From the NCBI RefSeq assembly GCF_056746865.1, contig NZ_CM163382.1: a DNA stretch of 64,000 bases. The stretch is one strand, 5' to 3'. The notes beneath the pieces were generated by a model. The model searched no databases. It saw nothing but the letters and a program-made list of their open reading frames with translations, and had not been told where the DNA came from. Made by a program: the position numbers and the translations under genes. How positions within the stretch are numbered: position 1 is the stretch's first letter; every line of letters starts with the position of its first letter. Below are positions 3,244-24,360 of this stretch, piece after piece.

Positions 3244-6356
<3,113 letters not shown>

Positions 6357-6362
6357 CCACAC

Positions 6363-6430
6363 AACATACGAGCCGGACGCATAAAGTGTAAAGCCTGGGG
6401 TGCCTAATGAGTGAGCTGACTCACATTAAT
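6363..6430 (-). promoter_or_regulatory. lac promoter (-10, -35) and CRP (CAP) binding site
   Basis: minus-strand tttaca ... tatgtt hexamers and tgtgagtcagctcact CRP-like palindrome (taatgagtgagctgactcacatta on the plus strand). Confidence 0.75.
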
Positions 6431-6448
6431 TGCGTTGCGCTCACTGCC
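6428..6448. promoter_or_regulatory. lac auxiliary operator O3 (overlaps lacI 3' end)
   Basis: aattgcgttgcgctcactgcc = reverse complement of GGCAGTGAGCGCAACGCAATT. Confidence 0.6.
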
Positions 6449-7523
6449 CGCTTTCGAGTCGGGAAATTTGTCGCGCCAGCTGCATTAAAGAATCTGCCAA
6501 CGCCTGGGGAGAAGCGGTTTGCGTATTGGGCGGAAGGGTGGTTTTTCTTTTCACCAGTGAGACGGGCAACAGCTGATTGCCCTTCACCGCCTGGCCCTGA
6601 GAGAGTTGCAGCAAGCGGTCCACGCTGGTTTGCCCCAGCAGGCGAAAATCCTGTTTGATGGTGGTTAACGGCGGGATATAACACGAGCTGTCTTCGGTAT
6701 CGTCGTATCCCACTACCGAGATATCCGCACCAACGTGCAGCCCGGACTCGGTAATGGCGCGCATTGCGCCCAGCGCCATCTGATCGTTGGCAACCAGCAT
6801 CGCAGTAGGAACGATGTCCTCATTCAGCATTTGCATGGTTTGTTGAAAACCGGACATGGCACTCCAGTCGCCTTCCCGTTCCGCTATCGGCTGAATTTGA
6901 TTGCGAGTGAGATATTTATGCCAGCCCGCCAGGCGCAGACGTGCCGAGACAGAACTTAATGGACCTGCTAACAGCGCGATTTGCTGGTGACCCAATGCGA
7001 CCAGATGCTCCACGCCCAGTCGCGTACCGTCTTCATGGGAGAAAATAATACTGTTGATGGGTGTCTGGTCAGAGACATCAAGAAATAAAGCCGGAACATT
7101 AGTGCAGGCAGCTTCCACAGCAATGGCATCCTGGTCATCCAGCGGATAGTTAATGATCAGCCCACTGACGCGTTGCGCGAGAAGATTGTGCACCGCCGCT
7201 TTACAGGCTTCGACGCCGCTTCGTTCTACCATCGACACCACCACGCTGGCACCCAGTTGATCGGCGCGAGATTTAATCGCCGCGACAATTTGCGACGGCG
7301 CGTGCAGGGCCAGACTGGAGGTGGCAACGCCAATCAGCAACGACTGCTTGCCCGCCAGTTGTTGTGCCACGCGGTTGGGAATGTAATTCAGCTCCGCCAT
7401 CGCCGCTTCTACTTTTTCCCGCGTTTTCGCAGAAACGTGGCTGGCCTGGTTCACCACGCGGGAAACGGTCTGATAAGAGACACCGGCATACTCTGCGACA
7501 TCGTATAGCGTTACTGGTTTCAC
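6441..7523 (-). CDS. lacI: lactose operon repressor
   Basis: GTG start giving (M)KPVTLYDVAEYAGVSYQTVSRVV HTH, 360 aa, ends RLESGQ. Confidence 0.95.
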   Translation of the reverse strand: MKPVTLYDVAEYAGVSYQTVSRVVNQASHVSAKTREKVEAAMAELNYIPNRVAQQLAGKQSLLIGVATSSLALHAPSQIVAAIKSRADQLGASVVVSMVERSGVEACKAAVHNLLAQRVSGLIINYPLDDQDAIAVEAACTNVPALFLDVSDQTPINSIIFSHEDGTRLGVEHLVALGHQQIALLAGPLSSVSARLRLAGWHKYLTRNQIQPIAEREGDWSAMSGFQQTMQMLNEDIVPTAMLVANDQMALGAMRAITESGLHVGADISVVGYDDTEDSSCYIPPLTTIKQDFRLLGQTSVDRLLQLSQGQAVKGNQLLPVSLVKRKTTLPPNTQTASPQALADSLMQLARQISRLESGQ

Positions 7524-7599
7524 ATTCACCACCCTGAATTGACTCTCTTCCGGGCGCTATCATGCCATACCGCGAAAGGTTTTGCGCCATTCGATGGTG

Positions 7600-8433
7600 T
7601 CAACGTAAATGCATGCCGCTTCGCCGTCCGGCCACCAGAATAGCCTGCGATTCAACCCCTTCTTCGATCTGTTTTGCCACCCGTTGTAGCGCCGGAAGAT
7701 GCTTTTCCGCTGCCTGTTCAATGGTCATTGCGCTCGCCATATACACCAGATTCAGACAGCCAATCACCCGTTGTTCACTGCGCAGCGGTACGGCAATAGA
7801 GGCGATCTTTTCTTCTTGATCCCAGCCGCGGTAGTTCTGTCCGTACCCCTCTTTGCGCGCGCGCGCCAGAATGGCTTCCAGCTTTAACGGTTCCCGTGCC
7901 AGTTGATAGTCATCACCGGGGCGGGAGGCTAACATCTCGATTAATTCCTTGCGTTCTTGTTCCGGGCAAAAGGCCAGCCAGGTCAGGCCCGAGGCGGTTT
8001 TCAGGAGCGGTAAACGTCGCCCGACCATTGCCCGGTGAAAGGATAAGCGGCTGAAACGGTGAGTGGTTTCGCGTACCACCATTGCATCAACATCCAGCGT
8101 GGACACATCTGTCGGCCATACCACTTCGCGCAACAGATCGCCCAGCAGTGGGGCCGCCAGTGCAGAAATCCACTGTTCGTCACGAAATCCTTCGCTTAAT
8201 TGCCGCACTTTGATGGTCAGACGAAAACTGTCATCGGAGGGACTACGCCGGACATATCCCTCTTCCTGCAGCGTCTCCAGCAGTCGCCGCACAGTGGTGC
8301 GATGCAGGCCGCTGAGTTCCGCCAGCAGCCCGACGCTGGCACCGCCATCAAGTTTATTTAACATATTTAATAACATTAGACCGCGGGTTAAGCCGCGCAC
8401 GGTTTTGTATTCCGTCTGCTCATTGTTCTGCAT
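7600..8433 (-). CDS. mhpR: IclR-family transcriptional activator of the mhp operon
   Basis: protein from MQNNEQTEYKTVRGL (277 aa) within a longer track ORF; divergent from mhpA. Confidence 0.88.
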   Translation of the reverse strand: MQNNEQTEYKTVRGLTRGLMLLNMLNKLDGGASVGLLAELSGLHRTTVRRLLETLQEEGYVRRSPSDDSFRLTIKVRQLSEGFRDEQWISALAAPLLGDLLREVVWPTDVSTLDVDAMVVRETTHRFSRLSFHRAMVGRRLPLLKTASGLTWLAFCPEQERKELIEMLASRPGDDYQLAREPLKLEAILARARKEGYGQNYRGWDQEEKIASIAVPLRSEQRVIGCLNLVYMASAMTIEQAAEKHLPALQRVAKQIEEGVESQAILVAGRRSGMHLR

Positions 8434-8465
8434 ATTAATTGACATTTCTATAGTTAAAACAACGT

Positions 8466-8482
8466 TGTGCACCTGGTGCACA
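8466..8482. promoter_or_regulatory. 17-bp palindrome in the mhpR-mhpA intergenic region (probable MhpR operator)
   Basis: tgtgcacc-t-ggtgcaca perfect 8+1+8 inverted repeat upstream of mhpA. Confidence 0.55.
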
Positions 8483-8623
8483 TTCGGGCATGTTTTGATT
8501 GTAGCCGAAAACACCCTTCCTATACTGAGCGCACAATAAAAAATCATTTACATGTTTTTAACAAAATAAGTTGCGCTGTACTGTGCGCGCAACGGCATTT
8601 TGTCCGAGTCGTGAGGTACTGAA

Positions 8624-10288
8624 ATGGCAATACAACACCCTGACATCCAGCCTGCTGTTAACCATAGCGTTCAGGTGGCGATCGCTGGTGCCGGTCCGGT
8701 CGGGCTGATGATGGCGAACTATCTCGGCCAGATGGGCATTGACGTGCTGGTGGTGGAGAAACTCGATAAGTTGATCGACTACCCGCGGGCGATTGGTATT
8801 GATGACGAGGCGCTGCGCACCATGCAGTCGGTTGGCCTGGTCGATAATGTTCTGCCGCACACTACGCCGTGGCACGCGATGCGTTTTCTCACCCCGAAAG
8901 GCCGCTGTTTTGCTGATATTCAGCCAATGACCGATGAATTTGGCTGGCCGCGCCGTAACGCCTTTATTCAGCCTCAGGTCGATGCGGTGATGCTGGAAGG
9001 ATTGTCGCGTTTTCCGAATGTGCGCTGCCTGTTTTCCCGCGAGCTGGAGGCCTTCAGCCAGCAAGATGACGAAGTGACCTTGCACCTGAAAACGGAAGAA
9101 GGGCAGCGGGAAACGGTCAAAGCCCAGTGGCTGGTGGCCTGTGATGGTGGGGCAAGTTTTGTCCGTCGCACCCTGAATGTGCCGTTTGAAGGTAAAACTG
9201 CGCCAAATCAGTGGATTGTGGTAGATATCGCCAACGATCCGTTAAGTACGCCCCATATCTATTTGTGTTGTGATCCGGTGCGCCCGTATGTTTCTGCCGC
9301 GCTGCCTCATGCGGTACGTCGCTTTGAATTTATGGTGATGCCGGGAGAAACCGAAGAACAGCTGCGTGAGCCGCAAAATATGCGCAAGCTGTTAAGCAAA
9401 GTGCTGCCTAATCCGGACAATGTTGAATTGATTCGCCAGCGTGTCTATACCCATAACGCGCGACTGGCGCAACGTTTCCGTATTGATCGCGTACTGCTGG
9501 CGGGCGATGCCGCGCACATCATGCCGGTGTGGCAGGGGCAGGGCTATAACAGTGGTATGCGCGACGCCTTTAACCTCGCATGGAAACTGGCGTTGGTTAT
9601 CCAGGGGAAAGCCCGTGATGCGCTGCTCGATACCTATCAACAAGAACGTCGCGATCACGCCAAAGCGATGATTGACCTGTCCGTGACGGCGGGCAACGTG
9701 CTGGCTCCGCCGAAACGCTGGCAGGGTACGTTACGTGACGGCGTTTCCTGGCTGTTGAATTATCTGCCGCCAGTAAAACGCTACTTCCTCGAAATGCGCT
9801 TCAAGCCGATGCCGCAATATTACGGCGGTGCGCTGGTGCGTGAGGGCGAAGCGAAGCACTCTCCGGTCGGCAAGATGTTTATTCAGCCGAAAGTCACGCT
9901 GGAAAACGGCGACGTGACGCTGCTCGATAACGCGATCGGCGCGAACTTCGCGGTAATTGGCTGGGGATGCAATCCACTGTGGGGGATGAGCGACGAGCAA
10001 ATCCAGCAGTGGCGCGCGTTGGGCACACGCTTCATTCAGGTGGTGCCGGAAGTGCAAATTCATACCGCACAGGATAACCACGACGGCGTACTACGCGTGG
10101 GCGATACGCAAGGTCGCCTGCGTAGCTGGTTCGCGCAACACAATGCTTCGCTGGTGGTGATGCGCCCGGATCGCTTTGTTGCCGCCACCGCCATTCCGCA
10201 AACCCTGGGCAAGACCCTGAATAAACTGGCGTCGGTGATGACGCTGACCCGCCCTGATGCCGACGTTTCTGTCGAAAAGGTAGCCTGA
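8624..10288 (+). CDS. mhpA: 3-(3-hydroxyphenyl)propionate hydroxylase (FAD monooxygenase)
   Basis: 554 aa; [10 protein letters not shown] dinucleotide-binding motif; first gene of the mhp cluster. Confidence 0.9.
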
Positions 10289-10289
10289 T

Positions 10290-11234
10290 ATGCACGCTTA
10301 TCTTCACTGTCTTTCCCACTCGCCGCTGGTGGGGTATGTCGACCCGGCGCAAGAGGTGCTCGATGAGGTCAATGGCGTGATTGCCAGCGCCCGCGAGCGT
10401 ATTGCGGCTTTCTCCCCTGAACTGGTGGTGCTGTTTGCGCCAGATCACTACAACGGCTTTTTCTATGACGTGATGCCACCGTTCTGTTTAGGCGTTGGAG
10501 CGACGGCAATTGGTGATTTCGGTAGTGCGGCAGGAGAGCTGCCCGTGCCTGTTGAGCTGGCGGAGGCCTGTGCGCATGCCGTCATGAAGAGCGGGATCGA
10601 TCTTGCCGTTTCTTACTGTATGCAGGTGGACCACGGGTTCGCCCAGCCGCTGGAGTTCCTGCTCGGCGGGCTGGATAAGGTGCCGGTTTTGCCTGTGTTC
10701 ATCAACGGTGTCGCCACGCCGTTGCCCGGTTTCCAGCGTACCCGCATGTTGGGTGAAGCCATTGGACGTTTCACCAGTACTCTCAATAAACGCGTGCTGT
10801 TCCTGGGTTCCGGTGGGCTTTCCCATCAGCCGCCGGTGCCAGAACTGGCGAAAGCCGATGCCCATATGCGCGACCGTCTGTTGGGGAGCGGGAAAGATTT
10901 ACCCGCCAGTGAGCGCGAATTGCGTCAGCAACGGGTGATTAGCGCCGCTGAGAAGTTTGTTGAGGATCAGAGAACGCTGCATCCCCTCAACCCGATTTGG
11001 GATAACCAGTTCATGACTTTGCTGGAGCAGGGACGCATACAGGAACTGGATGCCGTCAGTAACGAAGAGCTTTCCGCCATTGCCGGAAAGTCGACACATG
11101 AAATCAAAACCTGGGTCGCCGCTTTTGCCGCTATTTCTGCGTTTGGCAACTGGCGTAGCGAAGGGCGTTATTACCGCCCAATCCCGGAGTGGATTGCCGG
11201 ATTTGGCTCGTTAAGCGCCAGAACAGAGAACTGA
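10290..11234 (+). CDS. mhpB: 2,3-dihydroxyphenylpropionate 1,2-dioxygenase (extradiol)
   Basis: 314 aa; operon position after mhpA. Confidence 0.88.
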
Positions 11235-11251
11235 ATATGCAGGAGAAGATG

Positions 11252-12118
11252 ATGAGTTATCAGCCACAAACCGAAGCCGCCACCAGTCGTTTTCTGAATG
11301 TAGAAGAAGCGGGTAAAACGCTGCGCATCCATTTTAATGACTGCGGACAAGGCGACGAAACTGTTGTCCTGCTGCATGGTTCCGGCCCGGGTGCTACTGG
11401 CTGGGCGAACTTCAGCCGCAATATCGATCCGCTGGTAGAGGCGGGCTATCGGGTGATCCTGCTGGATTGTCCGGGTTGGGGTAAGAGCGATTCGATCGTT
11501 AATAGTGGTTCGCGATCGGATCTTAATGCGCGAATCCTGAAAAGCGTGGTGGATCAACTGGATATCGCCAAAATCCACCTGCTGGGCAACTCGATGGGCG
11601 GCCACAGTTCTGTGGCGTTCACTCTTAACTGGCCGGAGCGCGTCGGCAAACTGGTGCTGATGGGCGGCGGTACGGGCGGCATGAGTTTGTTTACGCCGAT
11701 GCCAACCGAAGGTATTAAGCGACTGAATCAGCTTTATCGTCAGCCGACTATCGAAAACCTGAAGCTGATGATGGATATCTTCGTTTTTGATACCAGCGAT
11801 TTGACCGACGCCCTGTTTGAAGCGCGCCTGAATAATATGCTGTCGCGCCGCGATCACCTGGAAAACTTCGTTAAGAGCCTGGAAGCCAATCCGAAACAGT
11901 TCCCGGATTTTGGCCCACGTCTGGCGGAAATCAAAGCGCAAACCCTGATTGTCTGGGGGCGCAACGACCGCTTTGTGCCGATGGATGCGGGTCTGCGTCT
12001 GCTGTCCGGCATTGCCGGTTCTGAACTGCATATCTTCCGCGACTGTGGTCACTGGGCGCAGTGGGAACATGCCGACGCTTTCAATCAACTGGTGCTGAAT
12101 TTCCTCGCACGCCCTTAA
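11252..12118 (+). CDS. mhpC: 2-hydroxy-6-oxononadienedioate hydrolase (alpha/beta hydrolase)
   Basis: [21 protein letters not shown] start preceded by aggag; GNSMGG nucleophile elbow; 288 aa. Confidence 0.88.
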
Positions 12119-19114: not shown

Positions 19115-19390
19115 CTATTTAAGATAGGCACGAACCAGTTCAATAGTGTCGTCAACGGATTGGCTGACTTCGCGGCTGTAGCAGTCATTTCGGTCAAACG
19201 TTTCCCGGATATGGCTTTCAAGCACTTCTGCCATCAGCCCGTTAGCCGCGCCCCGAACGGCAGCGATCTGTTGGAGTATGGCACGGCATTCGGCATCACC
19301 CTCCAGCGACCGTTCCAGAGCATCAATCTGCCCCCGAATACGACGAACTCGAGTAAGGACCTTTTTCTTCTCTTCCGGAGTACTGGGCAT
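19115..19390 (-). CDS. frmR: formaldehyde-responsive repressor (CsoR/RcnR family)
   Basis: [29 protein letters not shown], 91 aa; first gene of frmRAB. Confidence 0.9.
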
Positions 19391-19416
19391 TTCGCACCTC
19401 ATCATCTGCACGCAAT

Positions 19417-19465
19417 ATACTATAGGGGGGTATGCTATATGTCAATGCATACCCCCCTATAGTAT
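19417..19465. promoter_or_regulatory. probable FrmR operator in the frmR promoter region
   Basis: atactatagggggg ... cccccctatagtat inverted repeat (TACT-G6 / C6-AGTA type, as for RcnR/FrmR family sites) immediately upstream of frmR. Confidence 0.65.
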
Positions 19466-19577
19466 ATAACACTGGAGAATAAAATTTATCCGGTGAATGT
19501 GGTCGGAAAACAAAGAGGAAAGGGGGTGGGGCTAATCGGCAGGGAAGGCCGCCCCGGATAGCGGGCGGCAGAAGCAA

Positions 19578-20351
19578 TCAGAATTTCCAGGTCAGATGGG
19601 CTGCAAGTTGCAGACCGTTATAATCATCGGTTGGGGTGTCGTACCACACTTTACCTGCCGTCAGCCCGAGATTAAGTTGCTCAGTCAGCGGTTGAATACG
19701 TTGCAAACTGACGCTCTTCATGCTGCCGTAGCGTGTTTCTGGCGTCCAGTCATAGGTGTAAGCACCTGTTCCGCGGCTTAGCCATAGTTGCGTATAACCA
19801 GTGCCGCGCGGGTCATTCAGACGCACGGAAATCATATTGCTGTAACTACCACCTGCATCGCTGGAGTCATAATGGGTATAGCGGTAGCTGGAGATCACCG
19901 GGCCAGTATAGAGTGATACGCCGCCTTGCCAGGCATCGACTTCGACATCATCGTAATATTTAGTGTAGCGATAACCGGTCGTGAAAAGCGTTTTTGGCAA
20001 CAGTGCCAGGTTAATATCCTGACGAAAATCCTGGCGGGCAAAGACCGGCGTATTATCCGCAAAGGCAATACCCATTCGGGTTGTCAGCCAGTTATTCCAT
20101 TTATACCAGACCGCACCCTGACCGCGAGTGGCATTGAAATGTTCAGTTTCATAATCACGACGCCCCTGGGAAAGATTAAAAAGCAGCGTTGCGTTTTCAA
20201 CTTTCGCCACCAGTTCAGCATACGCTAAATTACGGTTGCCATGATCGCCAGAATAATCGGTAAAATCGTAGCCCGCGGTAATGGAAGTTAACCCGGCATA
20301 AGCGGGCAATGTGCTAAAAATTGCTGCCGCTAATAACGTCCGTTTTATCAT
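19578..20351 (-). CDS. yaiO: outer membrane beta-barrel protein YaiO
   Basis: 257 aa; signal peptide MIKRTLLAAAIFSTLPAYA; aromatic-rich, ends TWKF. Confidence 0.85.
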   Translation of the reverse strand: MIKRTLLAAAIFSTLPAYAGLTSITAGYDFTDYSGDHGNRNLAYAELVAKVENATLLFNLSQGRRDYETEHFNATRGQGAVWYKWNNWLTTRMGIAFADNTPVFARQDFRQDINLALLPKTLFTTGYRYTKYYDDVEVDAWQGGVSLYTGPVISSYRYTHYDSSDAGGSYSNMISVRLNDPRGTGYTQLWLSRGTGAYTYDWTPETRYGSMKSVSLQRIQPLTEQLNLGLTAGKVWYDTPTDDYNGLQLAAHLTWKF

Positions 20352-20352
20352 T

Positions 20353-21045
20353 TTAATCTCCTGTACGGATAAGTTCTTGTCGGAGTGAATAAGTTCCGGG
20401 AGGTAAATTACGTTCTACAATCACGCGCGGGCCAAGTTGCGTGTTCGGGGAAATAATTCGCCCAGGCAAAATAATAACTTGTACGCCAAGGCGTGAACGC
20501 TGCCCGATATAACAACCTAATTTATCGCATCCGGTAGCGATAATTCCCTCTGGAGTTCGAACAGACACGGGCTGTTGATCCAGACGATGATTACTGGTAC
20601 GTACTTGTGCGCCCAAATATGCCTGGTTTGCAACTACCGAGTCGGCGATAAAGCATTGCGGACCAATCGTTGCTTCCGCTTCAATAACCGCATTTTTAAT
20701 TTCGGTGGCGAAACCAATTTTTACGCCATTGCTGATTATTGTGCCAGGACGAATAAACGCATAATTACCTATCAGGCAGTTTGCGCCAATCACTACCGGA
20801 CCCTGAATAACGGCACCGTGACAAATACGGGTATTCGCGCCGATAACAACTTCACCTGCAGTTTCATCAATAATTACCTGGTCTGCAATCTGAATATTTT
20901 TCTCTTTAACATTAAGCTTCAGAAAGTTTTTCAGTTCCTGTGACAGAAGGTTGGGAATAAGAGGTTGACGCTTCCACCAGTGCGGAATAGCGGGTGGGTT
21001 TGTCGCGCTGAGGTTCGCGTCCAGTAAAAAAGGCAATAAGTCCAT
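20353..21045 (-). CDS. yaiX: hexapeptide-repeat acyltransferase YaiX (intact here)
   Basis: left-handed beta-helix hexapeptide repeats (GANTRICHGAVIQGPVVIGANCLIG...); start uncertain (ATG 21063, ATG 21045 or TTG 21036); no IS interruption. Confidence 0.7.
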   Translation of the reverse strand: MDLLPFLLDANLSATNPPAIPHWWKRQPLIPNLLSQELKNFLKLNVKEKNIQIADQVIIDETAGEVVIGANTRICHGAVIQGPVVIGANCLIGNYAFIRPGTIISNGVKIGFATEIKNAVIEAEATIGPQCFIADSVVANQAYLGAQVRTSNHRLDQQPVSVRTPEGIIATGCDKLGCYIGQRSRLGVQVIILPGRIISPNTQLGPRVIVERNLPPGTYSLRQELIRTGD

Positions 21046-22108
21046 AAATAATCCAGATGGCATAAGCTAATAATACATACACAACGGAAAGCGGTGCTAA
21101 AGGCACCAACAACCAGCAACGATGAAACCAGGCGCTAAAAGCACCAATAACACAAACTACGCCGACCCAGATAAGCGGAAACATTGCCAACACCACACCA
21201 TACGGCCCGGTGGTGATGAATTCATTAAACCAGGTAGTGAGATAAATCCCAACGCCATAAAGCACAACCAACAGCATAGGAAATATACTGAAGATACCGA
21301 AGCGGCTAAATAAAAGCCTTTTATGCAGGCGCATACAGACCGCGTAGCCCACAATCCAACGCCGCCAGCGACGCCATTCCTCACGCGGGCTGTTGCATTC
21401 CTGTGGGTATACGATGCAGCGATTCGCCTGCCGAATACGATAGCCGTTTGCCACCAATGTCCAGGTGAGATCAAGGTCTTCGACTTTAGTACGATCAGAG
21501 AAACCGAACTTACGCAATACATCAGTACGGAACATCCCGCAGGCACCGCTGATAATAAACGGTGCGCCGCCCAGGAGCTGCTGTAGCGTGCGCTTCATAA
21601 CAATCATCGGCAACTTTACGGTCGCGCGGATGTGCGGTAACAGACCCGCGCCTTTCAACGCAGTAGAGGGAATGCCGCCTACGGCATCAGCACCGCGCTC
21701 TATTTCTGCAAGCATATAGCCCATTCCGTCTTGATCGGGCGGAACATAGGTGTCGGCATCACTTAAAAAAACCTGGTCGCAGGTGGCGTAATTGAGGCCA
21801 TTCATCAGCGCACCACCTTTACCGGTATTTTTTTGCGTGACGGCAACAAAGCGGTCGCCCCATTTGCGTTTGACTTCCGCCATGACCGCTTCGGTATTGT
21901 CCGTGGAGCCGTCGTTTACGCAAATTACCCGGCAAAAATAAGGATTACGCAGCAGATTATCCAGTGACTGTGCCAGACACGGGCCTTCGTTATAAGCAGG
22001 TATAATGGCGTCAATACAGCCTTTCTTTTGACTGGGTTTACGTTTTAGCGTACTTAAAAACCATAGCAACATTGCTATGGACATACAGATAAATATCCAG
22101 GTTTTCAT
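20912..22108 (-). CDS. yaiP: family-2 glycosyltransferase with membrane domain YaiP
   Basis: 398 aa; N-terminal TM, GT-A fold motifs (VNDGSTD, DAD), C-terminal TM segments. Confidence 0.8.
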   Translation of the reverse strand: MKTWIFICMSIAMLLWFLSTLKRKPSQKKGCIDAIIPAYNEGPCLAQSLDNLLRNPYFCRVICVNDGSTDNTEAVMAEVKRKWGDRFVAVTQKNTGKGGALMNGLNYATCDQVFLSDADTYVPPDQDGMGYMLAEIERGADAVGGIPSTALKGAGLLPHIRATVKLPMIVMKRTLQQLLGGAPFIISGACGMFRTDVLRKFGFSDRTKVEDLDLTWTLVANGYRIRQANRCIVYPQECNSPREEWRRWRRWIVGYAVCMRLHKRLLFSRFGIFSIFPMLLVVLYGVGIYLTTWFNEFITTGPYGVVLAMFPLIWVGVVCVIGAFSAWFHRCWLLVPLAPLSVVYVLLAYAIWIIYGLIAFFTGREPQRDKPTRYSALVEASTSYSQPSVTGTEKLSEA

Positions 22109-22117
22109 GCAATTTGC

Positions 22118-22789
22118 TCAAAGAATCATTTTATGAATTACAAAGCCTTCACCCAGATCGCTATTGACCTGTTGCCCGCGAAATTGTGCAACTGCACGCA
22201 GGCGATCATGACGCATATAATCGCGTCGTTCCTGGCTTTTATGTTTTTTTAATGCAGCAAGTTTGACTGTGAAATATTCTTCTTTAACGGATTCAAAAAC
22301 CTGAGGCATAAATGAAAGCCAGGTGCTTGGGGTTTCGTAGCCGAGAATTTGTGGAATAGTTCGGCAGGCAACCATTGAAGCTTGATAAACAGCAAGATGA
22401 TCCTGATGGCGGTCGGCATCATGCATGGTATATACCCGCATGATTTCAACATCAGAAGGAATTTGATTTTTAATGATGTCTTCCAGGGCGGAAATCATAT
22501 CATTGAGCTGCAAATGCGCGCGGGTGTCAGCAAAATTAAGATGAATAGTTTGGTGGCACCCTAATATCTTTAGGGCGTTGCGCGATTCTTCATGGCGATC
22601 GATTATTCCATCTGTGCCAGAGTTGCCGGTAGTCATCACCACGGCTGCGATATAAATTCCTTTTTGCGCAAGACGAGCAAGCGACGCGCCACAGCCCAAT
22701 TCTATATCGTCAGGATGTGCGTCAATAGCAAGGATACCCTTTCTTTTATTTGCCGAAGAAAGGATGGCTGAATCTAAAACCTTATCCAC
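22118..22789 (-). CDS. yaiS: LmbE/PIG-L family deacetylase YaiS
   Basis: AHPDDIELG motif typical of the PIG-L/LmbE N-deacetylase family; 223-aa ORF (start may be internal). Confidence 0.75.
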   Translation of the reverse strand: MDKVLDSAILSSANKRKGILAIDAHPDDIELGCGASLARLAQKGIYIAAVVMTTGNSGTDGIIDRHEESRNALKILGCHQTIHLNFADTRAHLQLNDMISALEDIIKNQIPSDVEIMRVYTMHDADRHQDHLAVYQASMVACRTIPQILGYETPSTWLSFMPQVFESVKEEYFTVKLAALKKHKSQERRDYMRHDRLRAVAQFRGQQVNSDLGEGFVIHKMIL

Positions 22790-23397
22790 TTAATGACACT
22801 CCATTTTATTTATTATACTACAAGCACAACGATGCCCGCAGAGACGTAATCTCTGGCACAGACAGATGCTAATTTTTAAGTGTTAAAAATTACTGATAGC
22901 TGAAAAATAAGGGGCTTTCAGGTACGGGGATACGACTGCGTAATCTTTTATGTAGTTCATATGTTAAGTGTTTGTGTGTTTGGTTTGTATAGTTATTTTG
23001 TTTTATATATTGTATTTAGATGTGATTTAGTTTGTCAATTAATTACATATTAAAAATATGTTCTAGGCACAAATATGGATTATATACATTATGTGAATGT
23101 ATTATGTGGTTGATTGAGAATGATACAGTTATATATGCAATGTGAATATAATGATTTCATTATATGTATTGCTGTTAATAAAATAAAAGACATTATGTTC
23201 TGCTTGTTTATGCATTAATAAAAATGAAGTGCAGTAACTTACTGAATTGTCAGCGTGGGTGTAATTGCATATTTAATCTTTCCTTTGCCGCTTTTTTGCT
23301 AAGAATAAAATCATCTGTGCGATAACGACTAATTCTTTTAATGAATGTTTTTATTCCTGAATACTGCTCCTATAACAAGACAGGGGAGCAGACAATC

Positions 23398-24360
23398 ATG
23401 GCAATTTCATCGCGTAACACACTTCTTGCCGCACTGGCATTCATCGCTTTTCAGGCACAGGCGGTGAACGTCACCGTGGCCTATCAAACCTCCGCTGAAC
23501 CGGCGAAAGTGGCTCAGGCTGATAACACCTTTGCTAAAGAGAGCGGGGCGACGGTGGACTGGCGTAAGTTTGACAGCGGAGCCAGCATCGTGCGGGCGCT
23601 GGCTTCAGGCGATGTCCAAATCGGTAACCTCGGTTCCAGCCCATTAGCGGTGGCAGCCAGCCAACAGGTGCCGATTGAAGTCTTCTTACTGGCGTCAAAA
23701 CTGGGTAACTCCGAAGCGCTGGTGGTAAAGAAAACTATCAGCAAACCGGAAGATCTGATTGGCAAACGCATCGCCGTACCGTTTATCTCCACCACCCATT
23801 ACAGCCTGCTGGCGGCGCTGAAACACTGGGGTATAAAACCCGGACAAGTGGAGATAGTGAACCTGCAGCCACCCGCGATTATCGCCGCATGGCAACGGGG
23901 AGACATTGATGGTGCTTATGTCTGGGCACCGGCGGTTAACGCCCTGGAAAAAGACGGCAAGGTGCTGACCGATTCTGAACAGGTCGGGCAGTGGGGCGCG
24001 CCGACGCTGGATGTTTGGGTAGTGCGCAAAGATTTTGCCGAGAAACATCCTGAGGTCGTGAAAGCGTTCGCTAAAAGCGCCATCGATGCTCAGCAACCGT
24101 ACATTGCTAACCCAGACGCGTGGCTGAAACAGCCGGAAAACATCAGCAAGCTGGCGCGTTTAAGCGGCGTGCCGGAAGGTGACGTGCCGGGGCTGGTGAA
24201 GGGGAATACCTATCTGACGCCGCAGCAACAAACGGCAGAACTGACCGGACCGGTGAACAAAGCAATTATCGACACCGCGCAGTTTTTGAAAGAGCAGGGC
24301 AAAGTCCCCGCCGTGGCGAATGATTACAGCCAGTACGTTACCTCGCGCTTCGTACAATAA
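23398..24360 (+). CDS. tauA: taurine ABC transporter periplasmic binding protein
   Basis: MAISSRNTLLAALAFIAFQAQA signal peptide, 320 aa. Confidence 0.9.
   Translation: MAISSRNTLLAALAFIAFQAQAVNVTVAYQTSAEPAKVAQADNTFAKESGATVDWRKFDSGASIVRALASGDVQIGNLGSSPLAVAASQQVPIEVFLLASKLGNSEALVVKKTISKPEDLIGKRIAVPFISTTHYSLLAALKHWGIKPGQVEIVNLQPPAIIAAWQRGDIDGAYVWAPAVNALEKDGKVLTDSEQVGQWGAPTLDVWVVRKDFAEKHPEVVKAFAKSAIDAQQPYIANPDAWLKQPENISKLARLSGVPEGDVPGLVKGNTYLTPQQQTAELTGPVNKAIIDTAQFLKEQGKVPAVANDYSQYVTSRFVQ

Follow-up and report, generated by a model that had tools for sequence, protein, structure and literature searches.

A mobile four-gene cassette of Escherichia coli, yaiS-yaiP-yaiX-yaiO, as a candidate pathway for a GlcNAc-derived surface glycan

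Introduction

Flanked by frmR on one side and by the divergent tauABCD operon on the other, four genes, yaiS, yaiP, yaiX and yaiO, lie on the minus strand of a 64,000-nucleotide (nt) stretch of Escherichia coli DNA (contig NZ_CM163382.1 of assembly GCF_056746865.1; hereafter, the window), and the locus raises the question of what these genes make together. A preliminary description of the window had placed four co-oriented, tightly packed genes at positions 19578–22789 and proposed that they are a fully intact module that builds or modifies a surface glycan or glycolipid. Here we consider (i) what each of the four proteins is likely to do; (ii) whether the genes are conserved as a unit; (iii) which product best accounts for the combination; and (iv) why the locus has attracted so little attention in the laboratory strain K-12.

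We consider it close to certain that the four genes constitute a glycoconjugate biosynthesis module of some kind. The explanation that we favor, at about even chances of being right, is that the operon specifies a minimal pathway of the synthase type, leading to a surface or secreted glycan derived from N-acetylglucosamine (GlcNAc), with N-acyl editing in the cytoplasm and a conduit in the outer membrane.

YaiP is a predicted synthase-class glycosyltransferase

Judging from its modeled fold, YaiP (positions 20912–22108, minus strand; 398 amino acids, aa) is a membrane-embedded glycosyltransferase family 2 (GT2) enzyme of the class that includes the hyaluronan, cellulose, poly-N-acetylglucosamine (PNAG) and chitooligosaccharide synthases, and would reside in the inner membrane. 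The AlphaFold2 model (predicted local distance difference test, pLDDT, 89) has a first transmembrane (TM) helix at residues 2–21, a GT-A domain at 32–235, an interface helix at 241–261 that carries W245-RRWRRW251, and three C-terminal TM helices, with the interface and TM helices placed on the glycosyltransferase domain as in solved synthases. When this model was compared with the PDB using Foldseek, hyaluronan synthase (HAS) ranked first, with a query-normalized TM-score (TMq) of 0.67–0.69 over 400–440 columns that include the membrane helices; next came the minimal cellulose-synthase-like PcManGT, ahead of BcsA (TMq 0.59). In contrast, ArnC, GtrB and DPMS superposed through the GT-A domain only (TMq 0.34–0.39). 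As the fold comparison prefers HAS and BcsA to these enzymes, we rejected the assignment of YaiP as a generic GT2 enzyme or polyprenyl-phosphate transferase.

The motif set of the membrane GT2 synthases (D, DxD, ED and (Q/R)xxRW), common to class I HAS and BcsA, is present in YaiP. Among 43 homologues, down to 21% identity, D66/D70, D117xD119, E210-D211 and W251 do not vary, R250 is nearly invariant and G188 shows little or no variation. Position 247, a Q in distant homologues, is R in the YaiP family, so that the motif reads R-W-R-R-W. While the GT-A domain, the interface helix and the membrane helices of HAS and BcsA all superpose on the model, identity to these enzymes is only 14–17%, and YaiP is smaller, has four TM helices, lacks a PilZ domain and ends in an invariant, family-specific tail of its own, EPxRDKP(T/K)RY.

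The best NCBIfam match of YaiP is PgaC_IcaA (7.7e-29). However, YaiP does not reach the curated cutoff of the PgaC/IcaA equivalog TIGR03937 (100.9 versus 422.3 bits, over profile positions 37–300 of 407) or that of the NodC profile TIGR04242 (29.7 versus 550 bits, over the N-terminal 100 residues only), and on these cutoffs true PgaC or NodC orthology was rejected. Outside the YaiP family, its structural neighbors in the AFDB are PgaC-like synthases, many of them fused to NodB-type deacetylases, but they also include monoglucosyl-diacylglycerol synthases, which are structurally close and non-processive. With respect to the two activities offered in the preliminary description, the HAS/BcsA/PgaC-like fold of YaiP argues better for building a surface glycan than for modifying one.

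YaiS and YaiX would edit an amino sugar in the cytoplasm, and YaiO is a small outer-membrane barrel

YaiS (22118–22789, minus strand; 223 aa), the product of the first gene of the operon, has a GTG start preceded by GGAG at 22802–22799, 9 nt upstream, and is predicted to be a cytoplasmic zinc de-N-acetylase of the LmbE/PIG-L family. Positions 4–223 of the 226 in the LmbE/BshB1 profile of NCBIfam are matched, PF02585 is recorded on every YaiS orthologue examined, and the metal-binding HPDD and HQDH sequences, within the AHPDD and HxDH motifs, are invariant in 14 family members. The closest solved relative is an archaeal diacetylchitobiose deacetylase, Dac (1.3e-12, residues 4–218). No signal peptide is apparent on reading of the sequence. 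The residue directly before AHPDD is aspartate in the window (Asp23, codon 22720–22722) and glycine in 13 of 13 orthologues; a 61-nt search found the Asp23 haplotype as an exact match in 107 of 3708 E. coli genomes. Since Dac carries a glutamate at the equivalent position, the Gly23Asp exchange need not inactivate YaiS.

YaiX (20353–21045, minus strand; 230 aa from the probable start), predicted to be a cytoplasmic left-handed beta-helix (LbH, hexapeptide) transferase, matches the GlmU-type LbH domains of NCBIfam. Its best solved relative is the glucosamine-1-phosphate (GlcN-1-P) N-acetyltransferase domain of ST0452 (residues 241–397, 2e-22, ungapped over 157 residues), and the family keeps E78/K80, D97-S98, VRTSN, KLG and LPG. 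The P-H-L-S-Y segment of ST0452 and GlmU, which holds the catalytic histidine (His308 in ST0452, His363 in E. coli GlmU), corresponds to an invariant G-P-(Q/L/M)-(C/S)-(F/Y) in 14 YaiX family members. With Gly-Pro replacing the catalytic histidine, YaiX was rejected as a canonical GlmU-type acetyltransferase; beta-helix N-acetyltransferases that lack a catalytic base, such as QdtC, do exist. As neither YaiX nor YaiS has an export signal, both would be expected to act in the cytoplasm, and since the relatives of the two enzymes are a GlcN-1-P N-acetyltransferase domain and a diacetylchitobiose deacetylase, their chemistry is probably that of GlcNAc.

YaiO (19578–20351, minus strand; 257 aa) has a Sec signal peptide ending AYA/G and matches TIGR04390/PF19413 with 183.8 bits, against a cutoff of 32. 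The mature protein of approximately 237 aa is modeled as a 14-stranded outer-membrane beta-barrel (pLDDT 90), the best structural matches of which are the oligosaccharide channels CymA and OmpG, while KdgM and NanC also score well. A family-profile search found no YaiO domains fused to tetratricopeptide repeats (TPR), only stand-alone barrels of 250–285 aa, although the word-index limit of that search may miss fusions. For all four genes, the identities given in the preliminary description are borne out by the NCBIfam profile matches.

The four genes form an apparently self-contained, mobile cassette

The open reading frame (ORF) list gives the same coordinates and strand for the four genes as the preliminary description did, and the packing is indeed tight: yaiS and yaiP are separated by 9 nt, yaiX and yaiO by 1 nt, while yaiX begins within the 3' end of yaiP, in another reading frame. 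Each of the four proteins aligns with its orthologues as one end-to-end tblastn segment, with no frameshift or stop codon, and the 4.1 kb from 19300 to 23400 are 100% identical to the corresponding region of E. coli CFSAN061770.

The preliminary description had suggested that the idea of a module would fail if the four genes were not co-conserved. In all of the orthologous loci that we inspected, and also on plasmids, the four genes stand together in one and the same order. The order S-P-X-O is kept, with the same tight spacing, in all 17 loci, which come from at least eight genera (the hosts are Citrobacter, Superficieibacter, Salmonella, Stenotrophomonas, Pseudomonas viridiflava, Acinetobacter and metagenome-assembled genomes) and have unrelated flanks, among them rpoBC, a fimbrial operon, a TonB receptor gene and ccdAB. 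Identity to the proteins of the window is 60–84% for YaiP, 52–82% for YaiX, 44–80% for YaiS and 30–80% for YaiO. The search for related loci, which is not a census, returned at least eight true orthologous loci and then generic GT2 enzymes of no more than 32% identity; among the matches listed, YaiP identity thus passes from at least 60% to at most 32%. Of 1.84 billion cluster representatives, only 46 matched YaiP below 1e-30. By these measures, the YaiP clade appears to be discrete.

More distant versions retain the trio of deacetylase, synthase and transferase at 38–41% YaiP identity. In one such lineage, a membrane-anchored deacetylase of carbohydrate esterase family 4 (CE4), with intact TFDDG and HxxxH motifs, takes the place of YaiO; in protein length and in identity to YaiP, this lineage equals a protein from Anaerosolibacter (Clostridia) in the AFDB, and the clostridial cassette is adjoined by a glycanase of glycoside hydrolase family 16 (GH16). 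In the actinobacterium Mumia quercus (5287–11783 of compared locus L021, and also in L022), a PgaC-like GT2 enzyme (1.2e-48 to PgaC_IcaA) is encoded near a histidine kinase and a protein in which a response-regulator receiver domain is fused to an LmbE deacetylase; thus, the pairing of a synthase with a cytoplasmic LmbE protein recurs in a distant phylum. The apparent fourth gene of another locus, L092, was rejected as an alternative component, as it encodes an IS30 transposase.

The cassette also occurs in more than one place within single species. Some E. coli strains have a 91%-identical cassette at a second chromosomal site, beside an IS66 remnant (L096, 4999–8205), and Citrobacter braakii ATCC 51113 has two divergent copies (L014 and L016). 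Complete cassettes were found on the IncF conjugative plasmid KS-NP019_P1, which carries cnf2 (L098, 5333–8531), and on a plasmid of Shiga toxin-producing E. coli (L099, 1–3102). A YaiP homologue is encoded by 49 PLSDB records, 33 of which are predicted to be conjugative. Taken together, gene order, flanks and plasmid occurrence indicate that yaiS-yaiP-yaiX-yaiO is a single, self-contained and horizontally mobile operon.

Among 5426 complete E. coli genomes, 4251 (approximately 78%) cover at least 80% of the region. E. coli O157:H7 FRIK2533 (L097, 7251–14183) has another island beside frmR, comprising an fbpC-type ABC transporter, a uhpC-like gene and a MASE1 sensor kinase, and yaiO is absent there. 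The gene yaiO has served as an E. coli-specific PCR target (PMC4453288).

A minimal route to a surface glycan, and its alternatives

In the pathway that we favor, YaiP would take a UDP-activated amino sugar as its substrate, polymerize it on the cytoplasmic side of the inner membrane and thread the product into or across that membrane; YaiS and YaiX would set the N-acyl state of the sugar in the cytoplasm, either on the precursor or on a chain end exposed there; and YaiO would provide a 14-stranded channel across the outer membrane. Transcription would start from a strong sigma-70 promoter in an AT-rich region and would be silenced by H-NS, leaving the pathway cryptic in culture, and the product, once expressed, would make cells stick together. 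Gene content and order, co-conservation, mobility, fold classes, conserved motifs and the K-12 lesions are what the analysis shows directly, whereas the identity of the sugar, the processivity of YaiP, the order of tailoring, the role of YaiO in export and the control by H-NS in this strain are parts of this scheme that we infer. That the product is exported and N-acetylated is suggested by the clostridial cassette, in which the membrane-anchored CE4 deacetylase replaces YaiO: an N-acetylated glycan that leaves the cell, together with a fourth gene fitted to the type of envelope, would predict such an exchange.

The closest parallel in kind is the PNAG systems PgaABCD and IcaADBC, with which the cassette shares a membrane GT2 synthase, a de-N-acetylation step and, in the Gram-negative case, an outer-membrane barrel, while the CE4 enzyme of the monoderm version of the cassette parallels IcaB. 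An aggregation phenotype would be a further likeness, to the extent that it can be judged from the abstract on clumping discussed below. However, the cassette has no PgaD partner, no periplasmic CE4 enzyme of the PgaB type and no PgaA, which combines TPR with a 16-stranded barrel.

Several points weigh against the synthase-type pathway. The glycan itself is a prediction from genes and models, and YaiP lies far under the PgaC cutoff (100.9 versus 422 bits). With only four TM helices, YaiP may be unable to make a channel on its own, and PgaC itself requires PgaD. The cassette contains no periplasmic scaffold, TPR protein or cyclic di-GMP (c-di-GMP) receptor, whereas, to our knowledge, every established Gram-negative synthase system has such parts. 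With 14 strands, YaiO is nearer to channels for oligosaccharides or hydrophobic solutes than to the 16-stranded PgaA, BcsC and PelB. If synthesis and translocation are strictly coupled, only the donor or the terminal sugar could be left for the cytoplasmic enzymes to act on, and YaiX lacks the catalytic histidine of the GlmU type. Finally, the clumping result exists solely as a meeting abstract, cited in EcoGene 3.0 (PMC3531124), and repair of the IS2 insertion in yaiX would also relieve polarity on yaiO. Because of the missing scaffold and c-di-GMP receptor, the four TM helices, the barrel of 14 rather than 16–18 strands and the problem of cytoplasmic access, explanations that invoke an oligosaccharide or a glycolipid retain some probability.

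In the first of these, which we regard as unlikely, the cassette would operate in the manner of Nod-factor synthesis: YaiP, like NodC, would make a short GlcNAc oligosaccharide still within reach of cytoplasmic enzymes, YaiS would deacetylate its terminal residue (as NodB does with a different fold) and YaiX would re-acylate or acetylate it in the part of NodA or NodL, and the product would leave through YaiO, a narrow porin, as a signal or decoration. NodABC likewise runs from a GT2 synthase to a de-N-acetylase and an acyl- or acetyltransferase, all on the cytoplasmic side, and NodC is similar to YaiP in size and topology (one N-terminal and three C-terminal TM helices in approximately 400 aa). 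For two tailoring enzymes in the cytoplasm to make sense, the product or its end has to be located there; the closest solved relative of YaiS acts on the non-reducing GlcNAc of chitobiose; CymA and OmpG, the top structural matches of YaiO, as well as KdgM and NanC, fit this route; and a small product needs no periplasmic scaffold. Yet YaiP scores only 29.7 bits against the NodC cutoff of 550 and matches PgaC much better, NodB has a CE4 fold, NodA is unrelated to YaiX and to beta-helix transferases in general, the cassette has no inner-membrane exporter corresponding to NodIJ, and Nod systems have no outer-membrane barrel. The clumping, as far as the abstract goes, and the exported clostridial CE4 polysaccharide deacetylase both suit a polymer better.

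More doubtful still, in our estimation, is that the product is a glycolipid. Here YaiP would be non-processive and would add GlcNAc to a membrane lipid, in the manner of the monoglucosyl-diacylglycerol and glucosylceramide synthases; YaiS would de-N-acetylate it, as PIG-L does with GlcNAc-phosphatidylinositol; YaiX would acylate the amine or a hydroxyl; and YaiO would assist the lipid at the outer membrane. Glycosylation, de-N-acetylation and renewed derivatization follow one another in the LmbE-family pathways of mycothiol (MshA/B/C/D), bacillithiol (BshA/B/C), glycosylphosphatidylinositol (PIG-A/PIG-L/PIG-W) and teicoplanin (Orf2*) synthesis. In these, a GlcNAc added by a glycosyltransferase is deacetylated, which frees an amine for modification, and YaiS is a clear LmbE member. 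Those pathways, however, use GT4 or GT1 transferases and yield small molecules or lipid anchors, whereas the cassette has a synthase-class GT2 enzyme and an outer-membrane component. YaiO has no FadL-type hatch domain and its mature form is only approximately 237 aa long, the CE4 polysaccharide deacetylase and adjoining GH16 glycanase of the clostridial cassette indicate a polymer, and both the best curated family of YaiP (PgaC_IcaA) and its best solved structures are polymer synthases.

It is improbable that the cassette modifies existing lipopolysaccharide (LPS), enterobacterial common antigen (ECA) or peptidoglycan by way of an amino sugar linked to undecaprenyl phosphate, as in the ArnC/ArnD and FlmF2/NaxD routes, with YaiP loading GlcNAc, YaiS deacetylating it and another enzyme carrying out the transfer. 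Those precedents do pair a GT2 enzyme with a cytoplasmic deacetylase or deformylase, and ArnC and GtrB are among the sequence and fold matches of YaiP, but the TMq values given above (0.34–0.39, GT-A domain only, for ArnC, GtrB and DPMS versus 0.67–0.69 for HAS) point elsewhere, the cassette includes neither a flippase nor a periplasmic GT-C transferase, and it is self-contained across hosts that differ in LPS and ECA as well as in a species of Clostridia. Assignment as a defense system was rejected, as none of the four proteins matched the PADLOC anti-phage defense models at E ≤ 0.001.

The synthase-type pathway also invites comparison with NfrB/NfrA/YbcH of E. coli, a normally silent and recently recognized glycan system that consists of a GT2 synthase and an outer-membrane protein. 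NfrB has a c-di-GMP-binding domain and NfrA is a large TPR-barrel protein, and LmbE and beta-helix enzymes are absent from the system. We know of no characterized system in which a cytoplasmic LmbE and beta-helix pair is attached to a synthase-class GT2 enzyme, and our literature search found no paper describing this arrangement.

A bolder and less likely extension of the favored reading is that the cassette could be a fifth, hitherto unrecognized and minimal type of synthase-dependent glycan secretion, composed of a synthase, two cytoplasmic N-acyl editors and a small barrel without TPR. De-N-acetylation and re-acylation of the sugar would then precede or accompany polymerization, so that the adhesive product, polymeric or oligomeric, would bear an N-substituent other than acetyl. 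Virulence plasmids would carry such a system from host to host, and it would pass between gamma-proteobacteria and Clostridia. The inventory of E. coli surface polysaccharides (LPS, ECA, capsules, colanic acid, cellulose and PNAG) is treated as essentially complete; the cassette, widespread and mobile, and in one case located on a plasmid with cnf2, has the look of a pathway for an aggregation or biofilm glycan that has gone unnoticed.

Two lesions in K-12 and the annotation of yaiS

The preliminary description had noted that yaiX is interrupted in K-12, and an IS2 element is indeed seen within the gene. A second lesion lies in yaiS: codon 186 (22232–22234 in the window; 5769–5771 of the K-12 locus, L002) is CAG in the window and TAG in K-12, leaving a YaiS of 185 aa out of 223. 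The operon of K-12 therefore has two independent lesions, the IS2 insertion (yaiX) and an amber codon (yaiS). In 61-nt searches, the CAG allele gave 2212 exact matches (2577 genomes with a hit) and the TAG allele 355 (2576 genomes with a hit); the examples listed for the TAG allele are K-12-type laboratory strains.

The Prokaryotic Genome Annotation Pipeline (PGAP) calls yaiS a "missing C-terminus" pseudogene in the record that is identical to the window (L001, 6080–6490) and in another strain (L003, 4628–4990). We rejected this label for the gene studied here, as nothing interrupts its ORF, and the product spans the family profile in full and agrees with all orthologues. PGAP apparently mislabels intact yaiS genes because it takes the shortened K-12 protein as its reference, and the pseudogene call looks like an artefact of that comparison. 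The nonsense codon in K-12 yaiS and the resulting mislabeling are new here, and they expose a systematic error by which intact yaiS genes are flagged against a truncated reference. The description of the module as fully intact holds in that all four ORFs are open and of full length, and is to be qualified by the PGAP label and by Asp23 of YaiS.

A small ORF on the plus strand (22133–22252), annotated as ykiC or as "hypothetical protein", lies antisense within the 3' part of full-length yaiS. In K-12, ykiC sits between yaiP and the truncated yaiS, and it is listed among the small proteins of that strain (PMC6001520).

The start of yaiX may lie at any of three positions, and its product may accordingly have 193, 230 or 236 aa. 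PGAP places the start at 20934 (193 aa), the longest ORF begins at 21063 (236 aa), and the ATG at 21045 is probable. In non-enteric orthologues, yaiX begins ATG-TGG-TGG across the yaiP stop codon, and in E. coli the Trp-Trp pair is still in frame, 5' of the PGAP start. Because this motif is encoded upstream of the PGAP start, 21045 or 21063 is favored. The overlap with yaiP amounts to 23 nt from the PGAP start and to 134–152 nt from the upstream ATGs, and a two-frame conservation comparison indicated that both reading frames are constrained. The overlapping DNA (20912–21063) codes for both the invariant YaiP tail, EPxRDKPTRY, and the N-terminal extension of YaiX.

The preliminary description had also supposed that the function of the complete module has probably not been studied in K-12. 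A literature search on yaiO, yaiP, yaiS and yaiX found no functional study of the operon, with yaiO appearing mainly as a PCR marker, and to this extent the supposition stands. It does not extend to individual observations: according to a 2011 abstract, as relayed by EcoGene 3.0, repair of yaiX in K-12 leads to vegetative clumping, for which YaiP is needed (PMC3531124), and a 2026 study reported that overexpression of a 71-aa fragment of K-12 YaiX confers multidrug tolerance and virulence in silkworms, the 236-aa form being weaker (PMC13058169). The latter study leaves the neighboring genes of the operon unmentioned (PMC13058169), and its overexpression phenotypes say little about native function.

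Transcription and flanking sequences

The probable operon promoter, TTGACA-18-TACAAT (23009–23038, minus strand), agrees with the consensus at 11 of 12 positions, lies approximately 220 nt upstream of yaiS and was the only near-consensus sigma-70 match of the promoter scan. Identical hexamers were identified by genomic SELEX (systematic evolution of ligands by exponential enrichment) as the constitutive promoter of yaiS in K-12, with an H-NS flag (PMC3946193). The promoter is located within the intergenic region between yaiS and tauA (22790–23340, 28% GC), which is common to the divergent tauA promoter and is a probable site of H-NS silencing. The AT-rich upstream region remarked on in the preliminary description is thus real: from 22800 to 23400, the GC content is 28%, compared with approximately 50% within the genes. 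The K-12 yaiS(-)/tauA(+) spacer has been listed as an H-NS-associated "promoter island" (PMC3661553), and by analogy with the K-12 data, H-NS probably silences the operon in the strain of the window as well.

Because of the two lesions and the probably H-NS-bound promoter region, K-12 knockouts and clone libraries cannot report the function of the operon, and the same features explain why the cassette stayed invisible.

Promoter- and terminator-like matches within the operon are no more common than in shuffled sequence (for terminators, three versus 4.9 expected), a result that is neutral with regard to sub-operons, and the same scan found no terminator-like site between yaiO and frmR. Between yaiO and frmR, close to the 3' end of yaiO, lies a promoter-like site, TTGACA-17-TAGTAT (19417–19445, minus strand), the position of which is that of the frmRAB promoter in the K-12 SELEX study (PMC3946193).

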